DNA from: an uncultured Anaerolineaceae bacterium
GTDB lineage: Bacteria; Chloroflexota; Anaerolineae; Anaerolineales; Anaerolineaceae
DNA length: 60,616 bases
Assembly: GCA_964426355.1 (NCBI GenBank)
Contig: CAYRRA010000001.1
Location: forward strand, 1 to 60,616
Direction of reading: 5' to 3'
The stretch's first letter is position 1. Every line of letters begins with the position of its first letter. The position numbers and the translations under genes are program-made. The notes beneath the pieces are model-generated. The model searched no databases and had not been told where the DNA came from. It saw only the letters and a program-made list of their open reading frames with translations. Of the stretch, positions 19,970-52,725 are shown in pieces.

Positions 19970-19996
19970 TTAGCACTCTAACTCCTAGAGTGCTAA
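19970..19996 (-). promoter_or_regulatory. CIRCE operator (HrcA binding site)
   Basis: TTAGCACTC-N9-GAGTGCTAA, a perfect match to the CIRCE consensus in both arms. It lies between the predicted -10 box and the hrcA start codon. Confidence 0.93.
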
Positions 19997-20093: not shown

Positions 20094-20240
20094 TTATCCA
20101 CAAGCGGTGGAAATTCTTTTACACATCTGTGGATAAACCTTATCCATCCCACAATCAAACCGCTTTTTTATCAACCGGTTCATCACTTACTATCCACCGA
20201 TTCTTTCAGTTTTCCACAGATTCTGGCAAAGTTTTCCACA
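20094..20240. promoter_or_regulatory. DnaA-box cluster 1 (candidate oriC element or DnaA titration/regulatory site)
   Basis: Perfect boxes: TTATCCACA at 20094-20102 and TGTGGATAA at 20128-20136. One-mismatch boxes: TTTTCCACA at 20210-20218 and 20232-20240. Weaker boxes: TTATCCATC at 20140-20148 and CTATCCACC at 20190-20198. The last three same-orientation boxes start 20 and 22 bp apart, and an AT-rich stretch follows. Confidence 0.6.
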
Positions 20241-20300: not shown

Positions 20301-20419
20301 AATGAAATTTTCCGGGTTTACCGGTAGTGATGGTAACGTGGATCAGAGCGGTATGATTTGTAGTTCAAATAGAACTTTTTTACTCCGGCTTTAGCACTCC
20401 GCCGGAGTATATTTTTTTT
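20301..20419 (+). ncRNA. candidate ~120-nt leader transcript / small RNA upstream of rnj, containing a leaderless 30-codon ORF
   Basis: Bounded by the promoter above and an intrinsic terminator. The ATG at 20302 sits at or next to the predicted TSS. It opens MKFSGFTGSDGNVDQSGMICSSNRTFLLRL, ending at TAG 20392-20394 inside the terminator loop. I recognise no known RNA family here. Confidence 0.3.
20381..20419 (+). terminator. intrinsic terminator (possible attenuator) 54 nt upstream of rnj
   Basis: A 9-bp stem TACTCCGGC / GCCGGAGTA (20381-20389 / 20401-20409) with an 11-nt loop, followed by TATTTTTTTT. Confidence 0.7.
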
Positions 20420-20472
20420 GAAGAAATACTATACAATGAAATTACTTTTTTTCGAGGGATTATTAAACTGAA

Positions 20473-36538: not shown

Positions 36539-36559
36539 AGGTCCTCGCTATAATGTGAT

Positions 36560-36573
36560 GTTTCACGTGAAAC
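36560..36573. promoter_or_regulatory. perfect palindrome GTTTCACGTGAAAC (candidate GntR/YtrA operator)
   Basis: A 14-nt perfect palindrome located 22 nt upstream of the ABC ATPase start codon. Confidence 0.45.
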
Positions 36574-36634
36574 TCGGGTTGATACATACCTGTGTCATTT
36601 CTCATCGGTTTGCTTGAAAAGAAAACGCGGGCAA

Positions 36635-36652
36635 TTGTTTCATGTGAAACAA
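36635..36652. promoter_or_regulatory. palindrome TTGTTTCA-TG-TGAAACAA (candidate GntR/YtrA operator)
   Basis: Shares the GTTTCA-N2-TGAAAC core with the first palindrome. It lies in the same 146-nt spacer between the gntR-like gene and the ABC genes. Confidence 0.45.
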
Positions 36653-41686: not shown

Positions 41687-42451
41687 ATGAGCTTTGATAT
41701 GATGCCTTCATCAGCAAATGAACCTTTCGATAAAGCAGCTCAGTTGGGCGTGCCCTCTTTGGTCTGGCGCGCCGGACAGGAACGCCGTTGGGAAATGATC
41801 CGCCAGGCAGCCGGCGAACGTTTGAGTGGTGTGGTTTTTGAGGATGGCGCTGGCGTTGGGATGTACCTGGAACGCATGGCAGCCACCGCTGCACAGGCTG
41901 TTGGGCTGGAAGTGGAGATGGATCGTGCCCAACAGACCCATGAACGCATCGATCAGATCGTATGCGGGGTAGGAGAAACCCTGCCTTTCCCCGACAAACT
42001 CTTTGACCTGATTCTCAGCCATGAAGTCATCGAGCATGTGCAGGATGATCAACTGGTAGTCAATGAGATGGTGCGCACCTTACGACCCGGAGGGAGACTG
42101 ACTCTCTTTTGCCCCAACCGCGGTTACCCCTTTGAAACACATGGCATTTACTGGAAGGGGCAGTATCATTTTGGTAACAAACCGTTTGTAAATTACCTGC
42201 CGCGCCGCTGGCGGAACCGGTTGGCGCCGCATGTGCGAGTTTACTCTCGTTCCGACCTGGAAAAACTATTCAAAGGGCTGCCGGTGCGCTTCATTCAGCG
42301 AACCATCATCTTTGGCGCTTACGACAATATCATCGCCCGCAGACCCGGGTTGGGACGTTTGCTTCGAACGCTTCTGCAGGCATTGGAAAAAACACCTCTG
42401 CGAGTGTTGGGGCTTTCGCATTTTTGGGTTGTAGAGAAAATCGCTTCATAA
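41687..42451 (+). CDS. class I SAM-dependent methyltransferase
   Basis: I prefer the ATG at 41687, because the track start 41600 overlaps the kinase. Motif I is FEDGAGVGMY and the post-I/II blocks are DLILSHEVIEHV and LRPGGRL. Confidence 0.8.
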   Translation: MSFDMMPSSANEPFDKAAQLGVPSLVWRAGQERRWEMIRQAAGERLSGVVFEDGAGVGMYLERMAATAAQAVGLEVEMDRAQQTHERIDQIVCGVGETLPFPDKLFDLILSHEVIEHVQDDQLVVNEMVRTLRPGGRLTLFCPNRGYPFETHGIYWKGQYHFGNKPFVNYLPRRWRNRLAPHVRVYSRSDLEKLFKGLPVRFIQRTIIFGAYDNIIARRPGLGRLLRTLLQALEKTPLRVLGLSHFWVVEKIAS

Positions 42452-42502
42452 CAAGACGATTCGCTTCATTGACAATCCCACCCGCCTGCGGTATCCTTAC
42501 AC

Positions 42503-42612
42503 TGCGCCCGGGTGGGACCGGCGCGGCGGAACCCTACGAACCCCGTCAGGTCCGAGAGGAAGCAGCGGTAAGAAGGTACTTCCGGGCGCCGCCGGCAAAC
42601 CTACCCGGCGCA
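42503..42612 (+). ncRNA. ffs: signal recognition particle RNA (small bacterial 4.5S type)
   Basis: Contains the universally conserved domain IV sequence GUCAGGUCC-GAGA-GGAAGCAGC, a GNRA tetraloop flanked by the symmetric-loop sequences. For comparison, E. coli 4.5S has GUCAGGUCCGGAAGGAAGCAGC. The 5' segment UGCGCCCGGGUGGGACCGGCG... pairs with the 3' segment ...CGCCGCCGG..CCUACCCGGCGCA to form the long helix 5, and a U-rich tail follows. The ends are approximate. Confidence 0.85.
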
Positions 42613-42633
42613 TCTTTATTTCCGGTACACGCT

Positions 42634-43527
42634 ATGACAGACACACCCCCCATTTGCAATTACGAAGGCTCAGATTACCAGGAAACCTTCTGGGAAACTG
42701 GCGGTCGTGCTTACGAAGATGCCGCTGAATGCATTGCCCTCAAACGCCTCTTGCCGGCAAGCGGCGGACACCTGGTAGAACTGGGGGCGGGTGCAGGGCG
42801 AAACACCCCCCGCTATTGTGGTTTTCAAGCTATCACCCTGGTGGATTATTCGCTCACGCAGCTTCAGCAGGCAAAAAAGCGCTTATCCGAAAGCCACCCA
42901 GGGCAGGCTTACCGCTACGTGGCTGCCGATATCTACCGGCTGCCCTTCGTTTCCGGGCTGTTCGATGCCGCCACCATGATCCGCACACTTCATCACATGA
43001 GCGAACCACAGCGCGCCCTAAAGCAAGTCCGGAACGTCTTGCGACCGGGTTCTGTTTTTATCCTGGAGTTCGCCAATAAACGCAACTTAAAATCGGTGCT
43101 GCGCTATCTGCTGCGCCGCCAGGATTGGAACCCCTTTTCGCTCGAACCGGTGGAATTTGTAAAGCTGAATTTCGATTTTCACCCGCAGGCGGTTCGTAAC
43201 TGGCTGGGTGAAAATGGTTTCCTTCTGGAGCGCCAGCTTACGGTTTCTCACTTCCGCATCGGGTTGCTCAAGCGATTACTGCCATTGAAATTGCTGTTGT
43301 GGATGGATTCGATGGCGCAGCTTACCGGCGGGTTTTGGCAGTACTCTCCCAGTGTTTTTACACGCAGCCGTACCACCCAGGAAGGACTGACCAGCCTGCC
43401 GGGTGCGTTTTTCGCATGTCCGTTTTGCAGCGCACCTATTGAAGACACGCCGCCTTTGTTGTCCTGCCCCGGCTGCGGCAAAAAATACCCTGTTGAGGAT
43501 GGCATCTACGATTTTAGAGGGGCATAA
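42634..43527 (+). CDS. class I SAM-dependent methyltransferase with C-terminal Trm112-like zinc ribbon
   Basis: The real start is most likely ATG 42634 (MTDTPPICNYEG); the 70 codons the track puts upstream cover the SRP RNA. Motif I is VELGAGAGRNT. The C-terminus is CPFCSAP...CPGCGKKYPVEDGIYDF. Confidence 0.8.
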   Translation: MTDTPPICNYEGSDYQETFWETGGRAYEDAAECIALKRLLPASGGHLVELGAGAGRNTPRYCGFQAITLVDYSLTQLQQAKKRLSESHPGQAYRYVAADIYRLPFVSGLFDAATMIRTLHHMSEPQRALKQVRNVLRPGSVFILEFANKRNLKSVLRYLLRRQDWNPFSLEPVEFVKLNFDFHPQAVRNWLGENGFLLERQLTVSHFRIGLLKRLLPLKLLLWMDSMAQLTGGFWQYSPSVFTRSRTTQEGLTSLPGAFFACPFCSAPIEDTPPLLSCPGCGKKYPVEDGIYDFRGA

Positions 43528-47066: not shown

Positions 47067-49271
47067 TCATGAAATGATTTCAAGATTGGCAAGCGATGCC
47101 AGCAGCCTTTTGAAACCGACGCTATCGAAATGAACATCGACCACTTCCTCGCCATCCTGAATCCGGCTTTCCAATACAAGACCCTGCCCCCAGGAGGGAT
47201 GATGAACATTCATATTGGCTGAAAAATGCGTCTCCAGGATAGGTGCAGCTGGTTTGCGTACCGAACGCGATTCCCAGCGGGTGGGCGCCTGGTATTCCTG
47301 CCTGTGCCAGCTATCCGATGTTGTGGGCATGGATCGGATTCCCTGCCGACGGAGCAGTTCATCAGGGATGTCCTTTAAGAAACGCGAAGGCATGCTGATG
47401 GCTGAAGAGCCGTAGGTATTGCGCTGTGTTGCCCTCACCAGGTGAAGCTGGTTTTTGGTGCGCGTGATGCCCACATACAACAGGCGGCGTTCCTCTGCCA
47501 TTTCCTCAGGGTCATCGGATTTCACCGAACGATTATGCGGTAAAAGCCCTTCATCCAGCCCGATGATGAACACCTGGTCAAATTCAAGTCCTTTGGCTGC
47601 GTGGAGTGTGAGCAAGGTAGGCGCATCCTGTTTCTCCGGCAGGGTATCCTGGTCGGAAACCAATGCCAGGTTTTCAAGAAACTCCACCATTCCTTGACCG
47701 CGCTCTTCAAATTCGACCGCAATGCGCAGAAACTCCTCCACGTTCCCCCAGCGGTCTTCCCCCTCATCACTCCCATCATCCAGGTAAGCACGGAAACCAA
47801 TATCCATCATAATCCGTTCGATCAATTCATGCAGCGGCAGGCGGTCTGCGTCGGCACGCCAACCGGCAAGCTGATGGGCAAAACTGGACAGGGCGGCAAT
47901 CTCACGCCCAGAGAACTGCTCCCAGTAGGGAGATGCTTCCATTTGATGACCCAGCTCAAGCAGGAAAACACCAGAGGATACCCCGGCAAGAGAAGCAATT
48001 TTTCTGAGGTGATTCTCCGTTTTGTCGCCAATCTTGCGGGAAGGCACGTTGATGATGCGCTCCAGGCTGATTGTATCCGAGGGGTTGTGCACCAGGCGCA
48101 GGTAAGCAATCAGGTCCTTGATCTCTCTCCGTCCGTAGAAACGTTGGGCACCCACCAGGCGGTAGGGTACACCGGCGCGCATAAAGGCATCCTCCAGCAG
48201 CCGCGACTGGGCGTTGGTGCGGTACATAATGGCAAAATCACCACCTTTTTTTCCGCGATTCATCTGGTTCTGTATGGTTTGTACCACATAGGCAGCTTCG
48301 TGATAGTCGTCAGGCGCCTCATACAGGACAATCTGTTCACCCATTCCGCGCTCGGTAAAGAGGTGCTTGGGGGTGCGGTTTCGGTTATGGTCGATCACTG
48401 CCCTGGCTGCATCCAACACAATCTGGCGGGATCGGTAATTTTGCTCCAGCAGGATTTTCTTACACTGCGGATAATCCTGTTCAAAACGCAGAACATTGCG
48501 ATAATCAGCGCCGCGCCAGCGGTAGATCGATTGATCTTCGTCACCCACCACAAACAGGTTATGATGGTAAGAGCTGATGTGCTTGAGTATCTGGTATTGC
48601 GCCACGTTCGTATCTTGAAACTCATCCACCAGGATGTGTTCAAAACGCCGGGCATACTGCTGTTTTACGGTAGATTCTTCGGCAAATAAGCGCGCGGTAC
48701 ATAACAGTAGATCGTCGAAATCCAGCGCATCGTTTGCGGTCAGCATCTTTTGGTATTGTTCATATACTCGTTTAACAATGGTATCGCGATAGGTTTGCTG
48801 AACATAGTCTTTGGGGAGAATCAACTGGTTCTTGGCGTTTGATATGGCAGAATGAATGCCGTTTGGTGTGTACAACTTCTCATCGATGTTGAGCTCGCGC
48901 AGGATATTCTTCACCAGCGTTACCTGGTCGTCGGCGTCATAAATGACGAAGTTGGGTGAAAAGAGCAAATGATCTGCTTCGCGGCGTAAAATGCGGGCAC
49001 AAATGGCGTGAAATGTGCCCACCCACAACCCATCTGCTGAGGTACCCAACAGCTCCTCCACGCGCCGAGCCATCTCGCGCGCGGCTTTATTGGTGAACGT
49101 AACAGCGCTGATACGGTAAGGCGCAACGTTCAGGTTGTGGATCAAATAAGCAATACGAAAGGTCAGGACGCGTGTTTTTCCTGAGCCAGGACCGGCAAGC
49201 ACCAATACCTGCCCCGGATCGGCAGTGATGGCAGCCTGTTGTTGTGGGTTAAGTTCTTTTAGAGGATCCAT
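47067..49271 (-). CDS. pcrA: ATP-dependent DNA helicase, UvrD/PcrA family
   Basis: I prefer the ATG at 49271 (MDPLKELNPQQQAAI); the track start 49526 would overlap the divergent kinase gene. Motifs present are GPGSGKTRVL, DEFQDTN and VGDEDQSIYRWRGA, plus a C-terminal Tudor-like tail. Confidence 0.92.
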   Translation of the reverse strand: MDPLKELNPQQQAAITADPGQVLVLAGPGSGKTRVLTFRIAYLIHNLNVAPYRISAVTFTNKAAREMARRVEELLGTSADGLWVGTFHAICARILRREADHLLFSPNFVIYDADDQVTLVKNILRELNIDEKLYTPNGIHSAISNAKNQLILPKDYVQQTYRDTIVKRVYEQYQKMLTANDALDFDDLLLCTARLFAEESTVKQQYARRFEHILVDEFQDTNVAQYQILKHISSYHHNLFVVGDEDQSIYRWRGADYRNVLRFEQDYPQCKKILLEQNYRSRQIVLDAARAVIDHNRNRTPKHLFTERGMGEQIVLYEAPDDYHEAAYVVQTIQNQMNRGKKGGDFAIMYRTNAQSRLLEDAFMRAGVPYRLVGAQRFYGRREIKDLIAYLRLVHNPSDTISLERIINVPSRKIGDKTENHLRKIASLAGVSSGVFLLELGHQMEASPYWEQFSGREIAALSSFAHQLAGWRADADRLPLHELIERIMMDIGFRAYLDDGSDEGEDRWGNVEEFLRIAVEFEERGQGMVEFLENLALVSDQDTLPEKQDAPTLLTLHAAKGLEFDQVFIIGLDEGLLPHNRSVKSDDPEEMAEERRLLYVGITRTKNQLHLVRATQRNTYGSSAISMPSRFLKDIPDELLRRQGIRSMPTTSDSWHRQEYQAPTRWESRSVRKPAAPILETHFSANMNVHHPSWGQGLVLESRIQDGEEVVDVHFDSVGFKRLLASLANLEIIS

Positions 49272-49452
49272 ACGAGGTAGATTGTACCGTCTGGAATGGG
49301 GCATGTCAACGGAAGACCTGAAAACCTTTTTATGGTATATTAACACTGATTCAAGTAACCAATCTGATTGGGAAAAAAACGTCCTTTGGTTACACACAGC
49401 ATGGATACCTGGATGACCATAGTTCATCGTCAATTCATTCCCTGGAGGTTTT

Positions 49453-50097
49453 ATGTATTTTGCGGTTGAAGGTGTAATCGGTGTTGGTAAAACAACCCTG
49501 GCACGAATGCTACAAAAAAATTTCAATGCGGGGATGCTGTTGGAGGTCTTTGAAGAGAATCCTTTTCTGAGCGATTTTTATGAAAACCGTGAGCGATATG
49601 CCTTTCAGACTCAAATTTTTTTCCTGCTCAGCCGCTATCAACAGCAACGACACGGCGTAACCATGCTTTTAAACGAATATGAAACGTTAATCAGCGATTA
49701 CACTTTTGAAAAAGACGCATTATTTGCCCGGATCAACCTGAAGGGAGACGAACTGGATGTGTATTACCGCGTTCACCAGGCACTGGCAGAAAAAACAGTG
49801 AGCCCGGATTTGATTGTTTATTTGCGCGCCAATACCGAAGTGCTCATGCAGCGAATCGCCCAGCGTGATCGTCCTTTTGAACGACAAATGGATCGGGATT
49901 ACATACACTTACTCAACCAGGCGTATGATGAGTATTTTCTAAACGAGAAACAATCCTCCCCGGTACTGGTCATCGATACCAATCAACGTGATTTTGTCCG
50001 TTATGAAAATGATCTTGCCTATATTGAAATGCGTATCCGTCAGTCATTGCAGATGGCGCCCTTCCAACCAGAACTGCCCATTTCGGATCGCACATAA
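49453..50097 (+). CDS. deoxynucleoside kinase (dCK/dGK family)
   Basis: 214 aa with the P-loop EGVIGVGKTT, an ERY/DY substrate region and a DR lid motif (QRDRPFE). Confidence 0.88.
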   Translation: MYFAVEGVIGVGKTTLARMLQKNFNAGMLLEVFEENPFLSDFYENRERYAFQTQIFFLLSRYQQQRHGVTMLLNEYETLISDYTFEKDALFARINLKGDELDVYYRVHQALAEKTVSPDLIVYLRANTEVLMQRIAQRDRPFERQMDRDYIHLLNQAYDEYFLNEKQSSPVLVIDTNQRDFVRYENDLAYIEMRIRQSLQMAPFQPELPISDRT

Positions 50098-50168: not shown

Positions 50169-51173
50169 ATGAGGATCACCCGCGACTCACTAATCCAAAC
50201 CGCACGGCAGGTGGTTGCCCAACAGGTACGTAAAAACCGGCATTTAGTCAGCGTATACCTGACTGGTTCACTTCTTCATGATGAGCCTTTGCTGGGTAGA
50301 ACAACCGATATCGATCTTTTCTTTATCCATGATAGCGAACCGCCGATGGAACGTGAAGTCATCAGTATGTCAGATGAAGTTCATGTAGATATCGCTCACC
50401 TCTCGCAAAGCATCTTCCGTCAACCAAGAGAGTTGCGATCAGACCCCTGGATTGCACCTTTTTTGTGCGCCAACCCCATTTGCCTGCATGATACACAGCA
50501 TTGGTTTGAATTCACCCAGGCGAGTGTTTGTGCGCAGTATGGGCGGTCTGATTACATCTTACAACGCTCTCGCAGCCTGGCGGACGAAGCGCGTCAACTT
50601 TGGATGGATATCAAAACCGGCATGGTCGAAAGCCACAGCCAGCAGGTGAACCATTATTTAAAGGCGCTGGAACGTTCTGCCAATGCCATAGCTGTACTCA
50701 CCGATATTCCCTTGACCGAAAGACGGCTGTTACTGCAGTATCCCAGCCGGACTGCTGCAATTGGGCGAGAGGATTTATCCGCTGGATTTGTTGACCTGAT
50801 TATTCAGCAGGCAATTCCTCAAGATACATGGGAAACCTGGTTAGAGCAGTGGGAAGCTGCCTTTATTGCAGCCGGAAGCATTGAAAACCCTCCGGCACGG
50901 CTGCATCCCTGCCGGGTGATTTATTACAAGAGTGCAGCCCAGGTAATGCGGGAAGATTCTCCGCCTGCTGCCCTCTGGTCGATTCTTCGCACATGGACTG
51001 CCGCCGTAGCCGCACTGCCTGAAAAAAACGTCCATCAAGAGGCATGGAACACTGCTTTAGAGTTTCTCGGCTTGGATATCCACCCCTCTGGGGTATCCAT
51101 CCGCGCATTGGATAGTTACCTGGACAATATTGAAGAAACGATTGATCTTTGGGCGCAAAAGATGGGTCAGTGA
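50169..51173 (+). CDS. hypothetical protein with Pol-beta-type nucleotidyltransferase-like N-terminus
   Basis: 334 aa. The segment TGSLLHDEPLLGRTTDIDLFFI fits the G-S ... D-x-D minimal NTase pattern. The rest of the protein is helical. Confidence 0.5.
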   Translation: MRITRDSLIQTARQVVAQQVRKNRHLVSVYLTGSLLHDEPLLGRTTDIDLFFIHDSEPPMEREVISMSDEVHVDIAHLSQSIFRQPRELRSDPWIAPFLCANPICLHDTQHWFEFTQASVCAQYGRSDYILQRSRSLADEARQLWMDIKTGMVESHSQQVNHYLKALERSANAIAVLTDIPLTERRLLLQYPSRTAAIGREDLSAGFVDLIIQQAIPQDTWETWLEQWEAAFIAAGSIENPPARLHPCRVIYYKSAAQVMREDSPPAALWSILRTWTAAVAALPEKNVHQEAWNTALEFLGLDIHPSGVSIRALDSYLDNIEETIDLWAQKMGQ

Positions 51174-51189
51174 TTAATGCACTTAAAAC

Positions 51190-51506
51190 TGTGGAAAAAC
51201 CTCATATAATTGTGGAAAACCAGGAAAAAGTGTGGAGAAATACCTTAATTCTGTGTACTCAACAAAAAATTAGCGTAATTTAATCCCCCCATATCTGGGG
51301 AGAATCCCAGGCAGATAGACATATATGCAAGGGGGTAAAAAAGAGTTCTTTTTTTGCTAATTAATCCCCGACTTTTGCCAGGTTATCCACAAACCGATTC
51401 GGGAAAACTTTTATCCCAAAAACTTGAAGATGTGGGGGCAAAAAAAGCGCCAGTGCCAGATATAGGGCTATTTTTTGTCCCAAAAAGCCTTATCCACATT
51501 TCCACA
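51190..51506. promoter_or_regulatory. DnaA-box cluster 2 (candidate oriC element or DnaA titration/regulatory site)
   Basis: Reverse-orientation boxes: TGTGGAAAA at 51190-51198 and 51211-51219, and TGTGGAGAA at 51231-51239, with starts 21 and 20 bp apart. Perfect boxes: TTATCCACA at 51383-51391 and 51490-51498. Weaker boxes: ATTTCCACA at 51498-51506 and TTATCCCAA at 51411-51419. All lie within a 529-bp spacer with AT-rich flanks. Confidence 0.6.
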
Positions 51507-51616
51507 GACTCTACTACGATTACGATTCAATTCTCCTTAATTAATATGGGGAAAGATGATTCATTAATGACTCTGCGGAAACTTTTTTTCACTGTTTGAA
51601 GTCTTTTCAGGGGGTA

Positions 51617-51645
51617 TTGCAATTGAATATTAAATCTATTACAAT
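51617..51645 (+). promoter_or_regulatory. sigma-70-type promoter of spoVS
   Basis: TTGCAA (51617-51622), a 17-nt spacer, then TACAAT (51640-51645). GGGAGAG lies upstream of the ATG. Confidence 0.5.
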
Positions 51646-51702
51646 CTTAAAAACATGTAATTAACCCCGTATTGTCAGAATTTAAGAATTGGGAGAGACA
51701 AG

Positions 51703-51963
51703 ATGGAAATCATAAAAGTTAAAGCGAACTCCCGCACTGCAGCTGTGGCGGGGGCAATTGCCGGGGTAATCCGAGAGCATAAACATGCTGAGGTTCAGGC
51801 AATTGGTGCCGGTGCTGTCAACCAGGCAGTGAAGGCGATGGTGCTTGCAAAAGGGTATCTTGAGGAGGAAGATATTTTCATTGCAGCCGTCCCGGAATTT
51901 GTCGATGTTGAGATCGATGGGAAAGTACGCACAGCGGTTAAGCTGGTGATTGAACCTAAATAA
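51703..51963 (+). CDS. spoVS: stage V sporulation protein S family protein
   Basis: 86 aa with full-length resemblance to SpoVS (MEIIKVKANSRTAAVAGAIAGVIREHKHAEVQAIGAGAVNQAVKA...). Confidence 0.9.
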   Translation: MEIIKVKANSRTAAVAGAIAGVIREHKHAEVQAIGAGAVNQAVKAMVLAKGYLEEEDIFIAAVPEFVDVEIDGKVRTAVKLVIEPK

Positions 51964-52068: not shown

Positions 52069-52725
52069 TCAGAGACTCATGATTTCACCAGGATCAAAGA
52101 CAACATCTTCTTTCCCAGACAACTTTTCTTGCACTTTTGAGAGAATTAAATCCAGGTGAGGTGGATGTGCTACGTAATCGAGATCGTCTGCCGGAATAAT
52201 GAGCTTGGGACAAAGGGTAAAATGATCAATCCACTCTTCGTAAAGATGGTTCAGGTGTTCAAGGTATGTCGGGCTGATTGATTTCTCGTAATCACGGCTG
52301 CGTTTGGAGATTCTTTTACTCAGCGTACCCACGGACGCACGTAAATAGATGACTAGGTCGGGTACTGTAAGAGATTTACATAAGGTGTGATAAAGCGTTT
52401 GATAGGTCTGGTAATCTCGCTCCTGGAAATACCCCTGTAGATATAGGTTACGGGCAAAAATTTCTGCATCCTCGTAAATACTGCGGTCCTGTATGGTGGA
52501 TTGCGGGGTGAAGGACAAATCCTGATGGATACGCAGACGGTGGATGAGGAAAAAAATCTGTGAATGAAAGCTCCATCCAGACATGTCCTGATAAAAATCA
52601 GAAAGATACGGATTTTGTGCCTCTGGTTCGTAAAAAGGATCCCACCCCAGTTTTTCGCTGAGCAGTTTTACCAAAGTGGATTTACCAACACCGATATTCC
52701 CTGCTACGGTGATAAACTTTTTCAT
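52069..52725 (-). CDS. deoxynucleoside kinase (dCK/dGK family), second paralog
   Basis: 218 aa with the P-loop AGNIGVGKST, QDRSIYED, and a lid region (KRSRDYE). Confidence 0.88.
   Translation of the reverse strand: MKKFITVAGNIGVGKSTLVKLLSEKLGWDPFYEPEAQNPYLSDFYQDMSGWSFHSQIFFLIHRLRIHQDLSFTPQSTIQDRSIYEDAEIFARNLYLQGYFQERDYQTYQTLYHTLCKSLTVPDLVIYLRASVGTLSKRISKRSRDYEKSISPTYLEHLNHLYEEWIDHFTLCPKLIIPADDLDYVAHPPHLDLILSKVQEKLSGKEDVVFDPGEIMSL

Follow-up and report, generated by a model that had tools for sequence, protein, structure and literature searches.

Introduction

Among the bacterial replication origins (oriC) described so far, a basal unwinding system (BUS) has been defined as a DnaA box with at most two mismatches, often joined by a second co-oriented box, and followed by DnaA-trios (PMC8287927). 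The spacer between box and trios is at most 16 nt long (mode 10-13), including a GC-rich gap of about 4 nt, and the trios are at least three consecutive NAN triplets, 3'-GAT-5' being preferred nearest the box (PMC8287927). The second box is optional, lies between the first box and the trios and may have up to four mismatches; across the BUS survey, the upstream box of the pair was the better match (PMC8287927). On the top strand, the BUS of Bacillus subtilis reads TTATCCACA-AATCCACA-GGCC-CTACTATTA, with a 12-nt spacer (PMC8287927), and a distal box of B. subtilis incC acts by looping (PMC6669920). Table S1 of the survey, which writes the trio strand 3'->5' and takes its oriC coordinates from DoriC, gives B. 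subtilis as AATAGGTGT-TTAGGTGT-CCGG-GATGATAAT..., spacer 12, and Deinococcus maricopensis as AATAGGTGT-CAAAGGTGT-CGGG-AATGATAAT... (PMC8287927). Here we analysed a stretch of 60,616 bp, hereafter the window, from an uncultured Anaerolineaceae bacterium (contig CAYRRA010000001.1), in which the intergenic spacer at 51174-51702, upstream of spoVS, is very likely to be the DnaA-dependent chromosomal oriC.

Anaerolineaceae, which abound in anaerobic digesters, sediments and activated sludge, are known mostly from metagenome-assembled genomes (MAGs), without genetics. For this family, Table S1 predicts a BUS in Anaerolinea thermophila UNI-1 (NC_014960) at record positions 420-460 (DoriC ORI94030346), a weak one, with a single two-mismatch box, a 16-nt spacer and a trio score of 7 (PMC8287927). 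A literature search for a description of oriC in Anaerolineae or Chloroflexi found nothing specific.

Results

A cluster of DnaA boxes between gene X and spoVS

An earlier note on the window had pointed to seven DnaA-box-like 9-mers in a 529-bp spacer upstream of spoVS. The length and position of this spacer, which separates spoVS from an open reading frame (ORF) of 334 amino acids (aa), here named gene X, were upheld, and every one of the seven 9-mers was found at its coordinate. Five of them have at most one mismatch to TTATCCACA, three on the minus strand (51190, 51211 and 51231) and two on the plus strand (51383 and 51490). The reverse boxes, TGTGGAAAA at 51190 and 51211 and TGTGGAGAA at 51231, indeed carry one mismatch each and start 21 and 20 bp apart, and the boxes at 51383 and 51490 are perfect, as had been described. 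The two weaker 9-mers, at 51498 and 51411, have two mismatches each. The former (ATTTCCACA) was said to abut the box at 51490; the real arrangement is a one-base overlap. The latter (TTATCCCAA) is a weak match, as noted; it shows no conservation in relatives and is probably a chance match.

Across the whole window, 38 boxes with no more than one mismatch were counted, versus 13.6 +/- 4.1 expected. Five such boxes in 529 bp, two of them perfect, form a DnaA-box cluster of the kind expected of an oriC, and were obtained in none of 300 first-order Markov simulations (0/300), where the maximum was four, reached once; chance is thereby excluded as the source of the cluster. The exact SpoVS sequence of the window is also present on other metagenome contigs, and the spacer is identical in both of those that cover it.

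The cluster is conserved at an orthologous position

Alignment of gene X homologues was used to retrieve 80 loci from species-representative genomes, including those of Bellilinea caldifistulae, Ornatilinea apprima, Levilinea saccharolytica, Anaerolinea thermolimosa and three MAG chromosomes that are complete or of Mb scale. In the complete chromosomes OY969772.1 and OY969938.1, the spacer that follows gene X is located at about 1.327 Mb and about 2.615 Mb, respectively. Between 4 and 13 boxes lie right after gene X in 65 of the approximately 73 loci with enough sequence, at a density of about 10 per kb versus about 0.3 per kb in the flanks. The gene order deoxynucleoside kinase, gene X, long spacer, spoVS and a second deoxynucleoside kinase on the minus strand is kept in 45 independent loci. 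The earlier note had named absence of the array from relatives with this gene order as a sign against an origin; the array is present in 45/45 such loci. It is also kept in at least 12 species whose locus has no spoVS.

One locus (L011) has the origin composite described below about 4 kb beyond gene X, which suggests an insertion, and another (L030) has it inverted, on the minus strand. Gene X is found without a nearby box cluster in seven others (L010, L013, L026, L057, L071, L075 and L077). The linkage between gene X and oriC is thus frequent and not universal, as expected if origins rearrange.

A tandem box pair is followed by a trio-like array and AT-rich DNA

The boxes at 51490 and 51498 form a tandem co-oriented pair on the plus strand (51490..51506; TTATCCACA + (A)TTTCCACA) with an offset of 8 bp, in which the better consensus match is the upstream box. 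Tandem pairs offset by 8 or 9 bp were found in 61/81 gene X loci. It is followed by a 4-nt spacer, GACT (51507..51510, plus strand), the counterpart of the GC-rich gap of the BUS. This gap is 4 nt long in 58/60 loci and mostly reads GCCC or GGCC in relatives. Next to it, on the minus strand, lies a DnaA-trio-like array at 51511..51528 (top CTA CTA CGA TTA CGA TTC; bottom 3'-GAT GAT GCT AAT GCT AAG-5'). Of these first 6 trios, 4 have A as their middle base on the bottom strand. Relatives have the consensus CTA CTA nnA nTA CnA in this region, which over 60 loci opens with CTAC(T/G)(A/G), the first four bases (CTAC) being invariant. On the bottom strand, GAT is invariant at trio 1, and it is present in 43-51 of 60 loci at trio 2. 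The 3-nt periodicity is kept over five trios, with A at the third base in 48-60 of 60 loci. We propose that the tandem pair is the double-strand anchor of an unwinding system and the trio-like array its single-strand DnaA binding site.

In 3.46 Mb of related sequence (both strands), the composite of tandem boxes, 3-5 nt and CTAC was found 65 times, and 63 of these occurrences are at this spacer position; the window has one, at 51490. A coding cause of the periodicity was considered, as an 81-aa ORF (51354-51599) spans the trios, and was rejected: the best frame reaches at least 60 codons in just 53% of 60 loci, and no frame is consistently open across them. An RNA gene was also rejected. The spacer has no Rfam match at the gathering threshold, and an E-value scan of 51100-51760 gave only a chance snoRNA match (E = 0.36).

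The trios adjoin AT-rich DNA (51529..51616), the proposed DNA unwinding element (DUE). AT content is 60-70% at 51511-51616 and 80-87% at 51614-51650, and the 80 nt 3' of the gap average 65% AT in relatives versus 45% for whole loci. Base composition thus points to an AT-rich unwinding element beside the boxes, as expected of an oriC. The first melting site is likely to extend from 51511 to about 51600, where the conserved trio-like array would place it. The AT-rich stretch at 51617-51690, which the earlier note had offered as an unwinding element, turned out to hold the conserved spoVS promoter (TTGCAA-17-TACAAT, 51617..51645, plus strand), which reads away from the origin. A TACAAT -10 element is found within 220 nt of spoVS in 39/46 spoVS loci, nearly always 56-118 nt upstream, and 28 of those loci have a TG extension of it. 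A degenerate reverse box, TGGGGAAAG (51547-51555, minus strand), lies inside the AT-rich DNA; in about 25/61 relatives, a reverse box with no more than two mismatches is located 37-47 nt beyond the pair, versus a background of 10% per 70-nt window.

The distal boxes are rigidly spaced

The three reverse boxes (TTTTCCACA, TTTTCCACA and TTCTCCACA, 51190..51239, minus strand) are spaced by about two helical turns and are proposed to act as a distal DnaA-assembly array. This triple array is present in 58/61 relatives, with the exact 21 + 20 bp spacing in 57/58, at a median of 251 bp before the tandem pair (interquartile range 249-260). Its family form is TGTGGATAA-N12-TGTGGATAA-N11-TGTGGAnAA. The perfect middle box TTATCCACA (51383..51391, plus strand) is located 107 bp upstream of the pair, or about 10 helical turns; in 44/61 relatives, a box on the plus strand precedes the pair by 80-140 bp, the commonest distances being 104-108 bp (29 boxes). 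In their distal distances and layout, the boxes form an unusually rigid, conserved architecture in about 60 species.

An imperfect palindrome, CCCCCCATATCTGGGG (51285..51300), is the window copy of a family-wide C(3-5)-ATAT-G(3-5) motif. A second copy is at 51455-51466, and both are degenerate. The density of the motif is 2.6/kb within origins versus 0.06/kb outside, about 40-fold over the flanks, and its copies gather at -220 to -180 and frequently also at -60 to -20, counted from the tandem pair. Some loci have a third copy immediately 3' of gene X. The palindromes are possibly a terminator for gene X or a protein-binding site. Their arms are kept in sequence, beyond pairing, which suggests a protein-binding site over a mere terminator. 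The terminator or hairpin reading of the window copies was rejected, as they fold no better than shuffled sequences (z = -0.24 and +0.53), and a consensus scan found no terminator.

GC skew changes sign at the spacer

The minimum of the cumulative G-C skew is a signature of the origin, not of the terminus. GC skew in the window is -0.078 over 1-41 kb, where 39/41 1-kb bins are negative regardless of gene orientation, -0.002 over 41-51.5 kb and +0.105 over 51.5-60.6 kb, where 9/9 bins are positive; the rise starts at the spacer. Box-like words also switch strand, with 17 on the plus and 6 on the minus strand left of 47 kb versus 1 and 7 right of 51.7 kb (Fisher p = 0.004). Among species with at least 4 kb on either side, right-flank skew exceeds left-flank skew in 37/41 (means +0.016 and -0.041; sign test p = 1e-7). 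When cumulative skew was averaged over 60 species aligned on the tandem pair, the minimum fell 54 bp after the start of the pair, inside the trio/AT-rich segment. The negative-to-positive switch expected of an oriC is therefore present in the window and in relatives, at local scale.

Two parS-like sites, TGTTTCACGTGAAACT (36559-36574) and TGTTTCATGTGAAACA (36636-36651), each have one mismatch to the parS consensus, with none expected in shuffles. They are located 77 bp apart, 15 kb from the origin, in the spacer that separates the gene of an ABC-transporter ATPase from that of a GntR regulator. The pair fits an origin-proximal region; no parA or parB gene was found within the window.

Genomic environment of the spacer

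Gene X (50169..51173, plus strand) is the left neighbour of the origin and its most constant one. It encodes a Pol-beta-type nucleotidyltransferase-like protein of 334 aa that has no Pfam or NCBIfam match. Its homologues number 2106, and those that are named all belong to Anaerolineaceae, Anaerolineae or Chloroflexi. The AlphaFold model (predicted local distance difference test score, pLDDT, 93.5) suggests a Pol-beta-type nucleotidyltransferase domain and a helical domain, and the predicted fold weakly matches kanamycin nucleotidyltransferase ANT(4') (template modelling score 0.4-0.5, a generic resemblance). No replication role for gene X is evident from the model. The right neighbour, here and in 45 relatives, is spoVS (51703..51963, plus strand; PF04232, E = 4.6e-32).

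The locus is flanked by two deoxynucleoside kinase genes, one left of gene X (49453-50097, plus strand) and one right of spoVS (52069-52725, minus strand). Their products are paralogues with 31% identity, and the arrangement is kept in about 45 species. A PcrA/UvrD helicase gene (47067-49310, minus strand) lies beyond the left kinase gene, and a ferredoxin gene and two glycosyltransferase genes are further neighbours of the origin. A bacterial small signal recognition particle (SRP) RNA, the only Rfam match in the window at the gathering threshold, was detected at 42510-42609 (58.7 bits, E = 2.3e-10) within the mechanically called ORF 42424-43527, so that the true start of the methyltransferase gene there must lie farther downstream. 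A scan for tRNA genes found none.

As the earlier note had observed, neither dnaA nor dnaN is nearby: a Pfam scan of about 50 window proteins revealed neither, and within the window dnaA is absent for 51 kb left and 9 kb right of the origin. A tblastn search with E. coli DnaA gave no match in the window or in 83 loci, and none within 10 kb in any locus. The query was checked against the PDB DnaA chains of E. coli, B. subtilis, Aquifex and Thermotoga and proved valid.

A second group of boxes precedes rnj

The earlier note had mentioned another array of DnaA boxes, array 1, 31 kb from the spacer. This array is located at 20094-20240, between hrcA and the gene for RNase J (rnj). Its four boxes, two of them perfect and two with one mismatch, fall within 150 bp and stop shortly before a TTGACA-17-TAAAAT promoter that faces rnj. 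A perfect CIRCE element (controlling inverted repeat of chaperone expression; TTAGCACTC-N9-GAGTGCTAA, 19970-19996) precedes hrcA. In the rnj leader, at 20360-20420, a hairpin with a GC stem (CTCCGGC...GCCGGAG) precedes a T-run and resembles a terminator or attenuator.

Discussion

A predicted origin unlinked to dnaA

The spacer between gene X and spoVS is very probably an oriC of the standard kind, with DnaA, DnaA boxes and DnaA-trios, in a family-specific location unlinked to dnaA. This location, far from dnaA, has not previously been described. Direct observation covers the elements in the sequence, which are conserved in a fixed geometry across about 60 species, and the minimum of the skew. 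From them we infer DnaA binding, the site of unwinding and origin firing, which could proceed as follows. DnaA-ATP would fill the high-affinity boxes, namely the triple array (51190-51239), the middle box (51383) and the tandem pair (51490-51506). The tandem pair would anchor a DnaA oligomer, which would spread over the 4-nt gap to reach the trio-like repeats of the bottom strand (51511-51528). The neighbouring AT-rich DNA (about 51529-51616) would then melt, and the helicase would be loaded there. The distal boxes, helically phased at about 107 and about 251 bp, might feed DnaA to the anchor by looping, as in B. subtilis incC. Forks departing both ways would give the GC-skew sign change at the spacer.

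Several observations weigh against an origin in this spacer. Taken alone, the window would allow a skew turning point anywhere within 41-51.5 kb, and skew was computed on a 60.6-kb MAG contig and on loci of up to 21 kb, not on a whole replicon. The window has two consecutive NAN trios (GAT GAT, then GCT; 4/6 overall) versus at least three in the BUS rule, from which it departs because trio 3 is GCT, and three or more consecutive NAN are seen in just 27/60 relatives. Eight relatives have gene X without an adjoining box cluster. Adjacency to dnaA or dnaN, which is typical and not obligatory for an oriC, is lacking; an oriC apart from dnaA is uncommon yet well known, for example in E. coli. Finally, the BUS listed for A. 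thermophila UNI-1 in Table S1 (PMC8287927) could not be related to the X-spoVS locus, which was not placed on that genome: searches for homologues of A. thermolimosa X and SpoVS gave no protein on a 3.5-Mb contig.

ALTERNATIVES considered (spoVS operator, titration site, RNA gene, small protein gene, chance) are all much less likely than an origin. In Bacillus, DnaA is known to act as a transcription factor on genes related to sporulation. The boxes could accordingly be a transcriptional operator and no origin, through which DnaA represses or activates spoVS or ties it to the replication cycle, and the presence of spoVS directly downstream in the window and in 45 relatives would suit such a role, as would the conserved promoter about 110 bp downstream of the last box. 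However, boxes of a DnaA-regulated promoter would be expected at the promoter and tied to it, and these are spread 110-450 bp upstream of the -35 element, the nearest ending 110 bp before it. The full architecture is moreover kept in the species, at least 12, whose locus lacks spoVS, and an operator needs neither phased triple boxes nor a trio array, nor a place at the skew minimum. We therefore give an operator very little credence; DnaA control of spoVS, which the earlier note had raised, does not hold as the main role, given that the cluster persists without an adjacent spoVS, and DnaA may have a secondary regulatory effect on this gene. The note had also raised titration of DnaA outside oriC, as in B. 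subtilis. On this reading, the cluster would be no origin and would titrate or inactivate DnaA, as do datA in E. coli and the DnaA-box clusters of B. subtilis. A dense intergenic cluster of consensus boxes away from dnaA is what such a site would look like. But titration needs no co-oriented pair, 4-nt gap, periodic CTA repeats or AT-rich DNA, and in the related sequence that composite is nearly confined to this position. A titration cluster would also be expected to lack an unwinding module and to lie away from the strand switch, whereas here a trio-like array and AT-rich DNA adjoin the boxes and the skew sign change coincides with them in the 60-species average. As titration leaves the trio array and the skew minimum unexplained, it is highly improbable as the main role.

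A pair of origins, or a split origin with array 1 and the spacer both active, has the smallest probability of all. The four good boxes of array 1 would favour it, and other families have dual oriC predictions (bioRxiv 10.1101/2025.08.05.668638). Against this, GC skew stays negative through array 1 and for 20 kb more, out to 41 kb, array 1 has no composite of tandem pair and CTAC, and its boxes sit just upstream of the rnj promoter. Among 69 metagenome relatives retrieved through HrcA, there is none (0/69) in which the 600 bp before hrcA contain two boxes, and the closest one (80% HrcA identity) has retained CIRCE element and promoter and lacks the boxes. Since array 1 is absent in relatives and the skew does not flip there, it is not a second origin, and its absence upstream of hrcA in 69/69 relatives makes it lineage-specific; perhaps it is a regulatory or titrating cluster. 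The second origin-like element of the earlier note thus reduces to one origin, not two, and its view that the spacer is the more origin-like of the two arrays is borne out by the skew sign change and the BUS-type geometry.

In addition to a standard origin in this spacer, a more far-reaching proposal is that in Anaerolineaceae oriC moved from dnaA into the conserved neighbourhood deoxynucleoside kinase - nucleotidyltransferase X - oriC - spoVS - deoxynucleoside kinase, and that the two or three fixed palindromes (about -200 and about -40 from the unwinding anchor) form an additional, lineage-specific layer that binds a new origin regulator comparable to CtrA, MtrA or HP1021 at other origins. 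We regard this as tentative and rather unlikely. If it were true, the database origin of A. thermophila, near record position 1, would be wrong.

An origin at this place would be useful for MAG biology and for comparative studies of origins. Its signature, gene X followed by three boxes phased by 21/20 bp, the tandem box pair and GCCC-CTACTA, could anchor estimates of replication rate from metagenome coverage (peak-to-trough ratio), and could help to orient and close MAG chromosomes and to correct automated oriC calls. It would add a Chloroflexota example to the evidence that the unwinding module of box pair and DnaA-trios is ancestral in bacteria. The frequent lack of a central adenine in trios 3 and 5 provides a natural variant that is open to the published strand-separation assay.

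Comparison with known origins and DnaA-box clusters

Like datA of E. coli and the DnaA-box clusters of B. subtilis, the spacer has consensus boxes clustered outside the dnaA region. Those clusters, unlike the spacer, have no adjoining trio array or DUE and are located away from the skew switch; their description may suit array 1 better. The entry for A. thermophila UNI-1 concerns the same family and is likewise a computational prediction, and the spacer architecture found here is far stronger. The database origin may be mis-assigned in this reference genome of the family.

The spacer resembles E. coli oriC, located in the gidA-mioC spacer, in being unlinked to dnaA, between unrelated genes, as a single origin at the GC-skew switch, and in having a consensus box that points at the DUE (R1 in E. 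coli). It differs in box arrangement, and the 13-mer repeats, the IHF and Fis sites and the GATC/SeqA control belong to E. coli.

The incC BUS of B. subtilis oriC (box#6/#7; Richardson 2016; PMC6669920; PMC8287927; PMC10721633) shares with the spacer a co-oriented pair whose upstream box is nearer the consensus, a 12-nt distance, a 4-nt gap, two first trios reading 3'-GAT-5' and then AT-rich DNA, as well as further distal boxes upstream at helically phased distances. The origin of B. subtilis, in contrast, flanks dnaA, and the one predicted here lies between a nucleotidyltransferase-like gene and spoVS. Here, trios 3 and 5 frequently have no adenine in the middle, the distal boxes form a rigidly spaced triple array (21 + 20 bp) that is oppositely oriented, and positionally fixed C-ATAT-G palindromes are present. 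In the notation of Table S1, the window reads AATAGGTGT-AAAGGTGT-CTGA-GATGATGCTAATGCTAAG, spacer 12, the trio part being also written as GATGATGCTAAT. Measured against the BUS definition, the first box is the perfect TTATCCACA at 51490, with the trios 3' of it on the complementary strand; the second co-oriented box is ATTTCCACA at 51498, with its two mismatches; and the box-to-trio spacer, for which 0-16 nt are allowed, is 12 nt (51499-51510), or 12 or 13 nt in relatives. This distance from the upstream box to the trios equals that of B. subtilis and S. aureus in Table S1 (PMC8287927). The locus, whose third trio in the window is no NAN triplet, would work like a BUS, to which its orientation, box pair, gap and first two trios correspond exactly.

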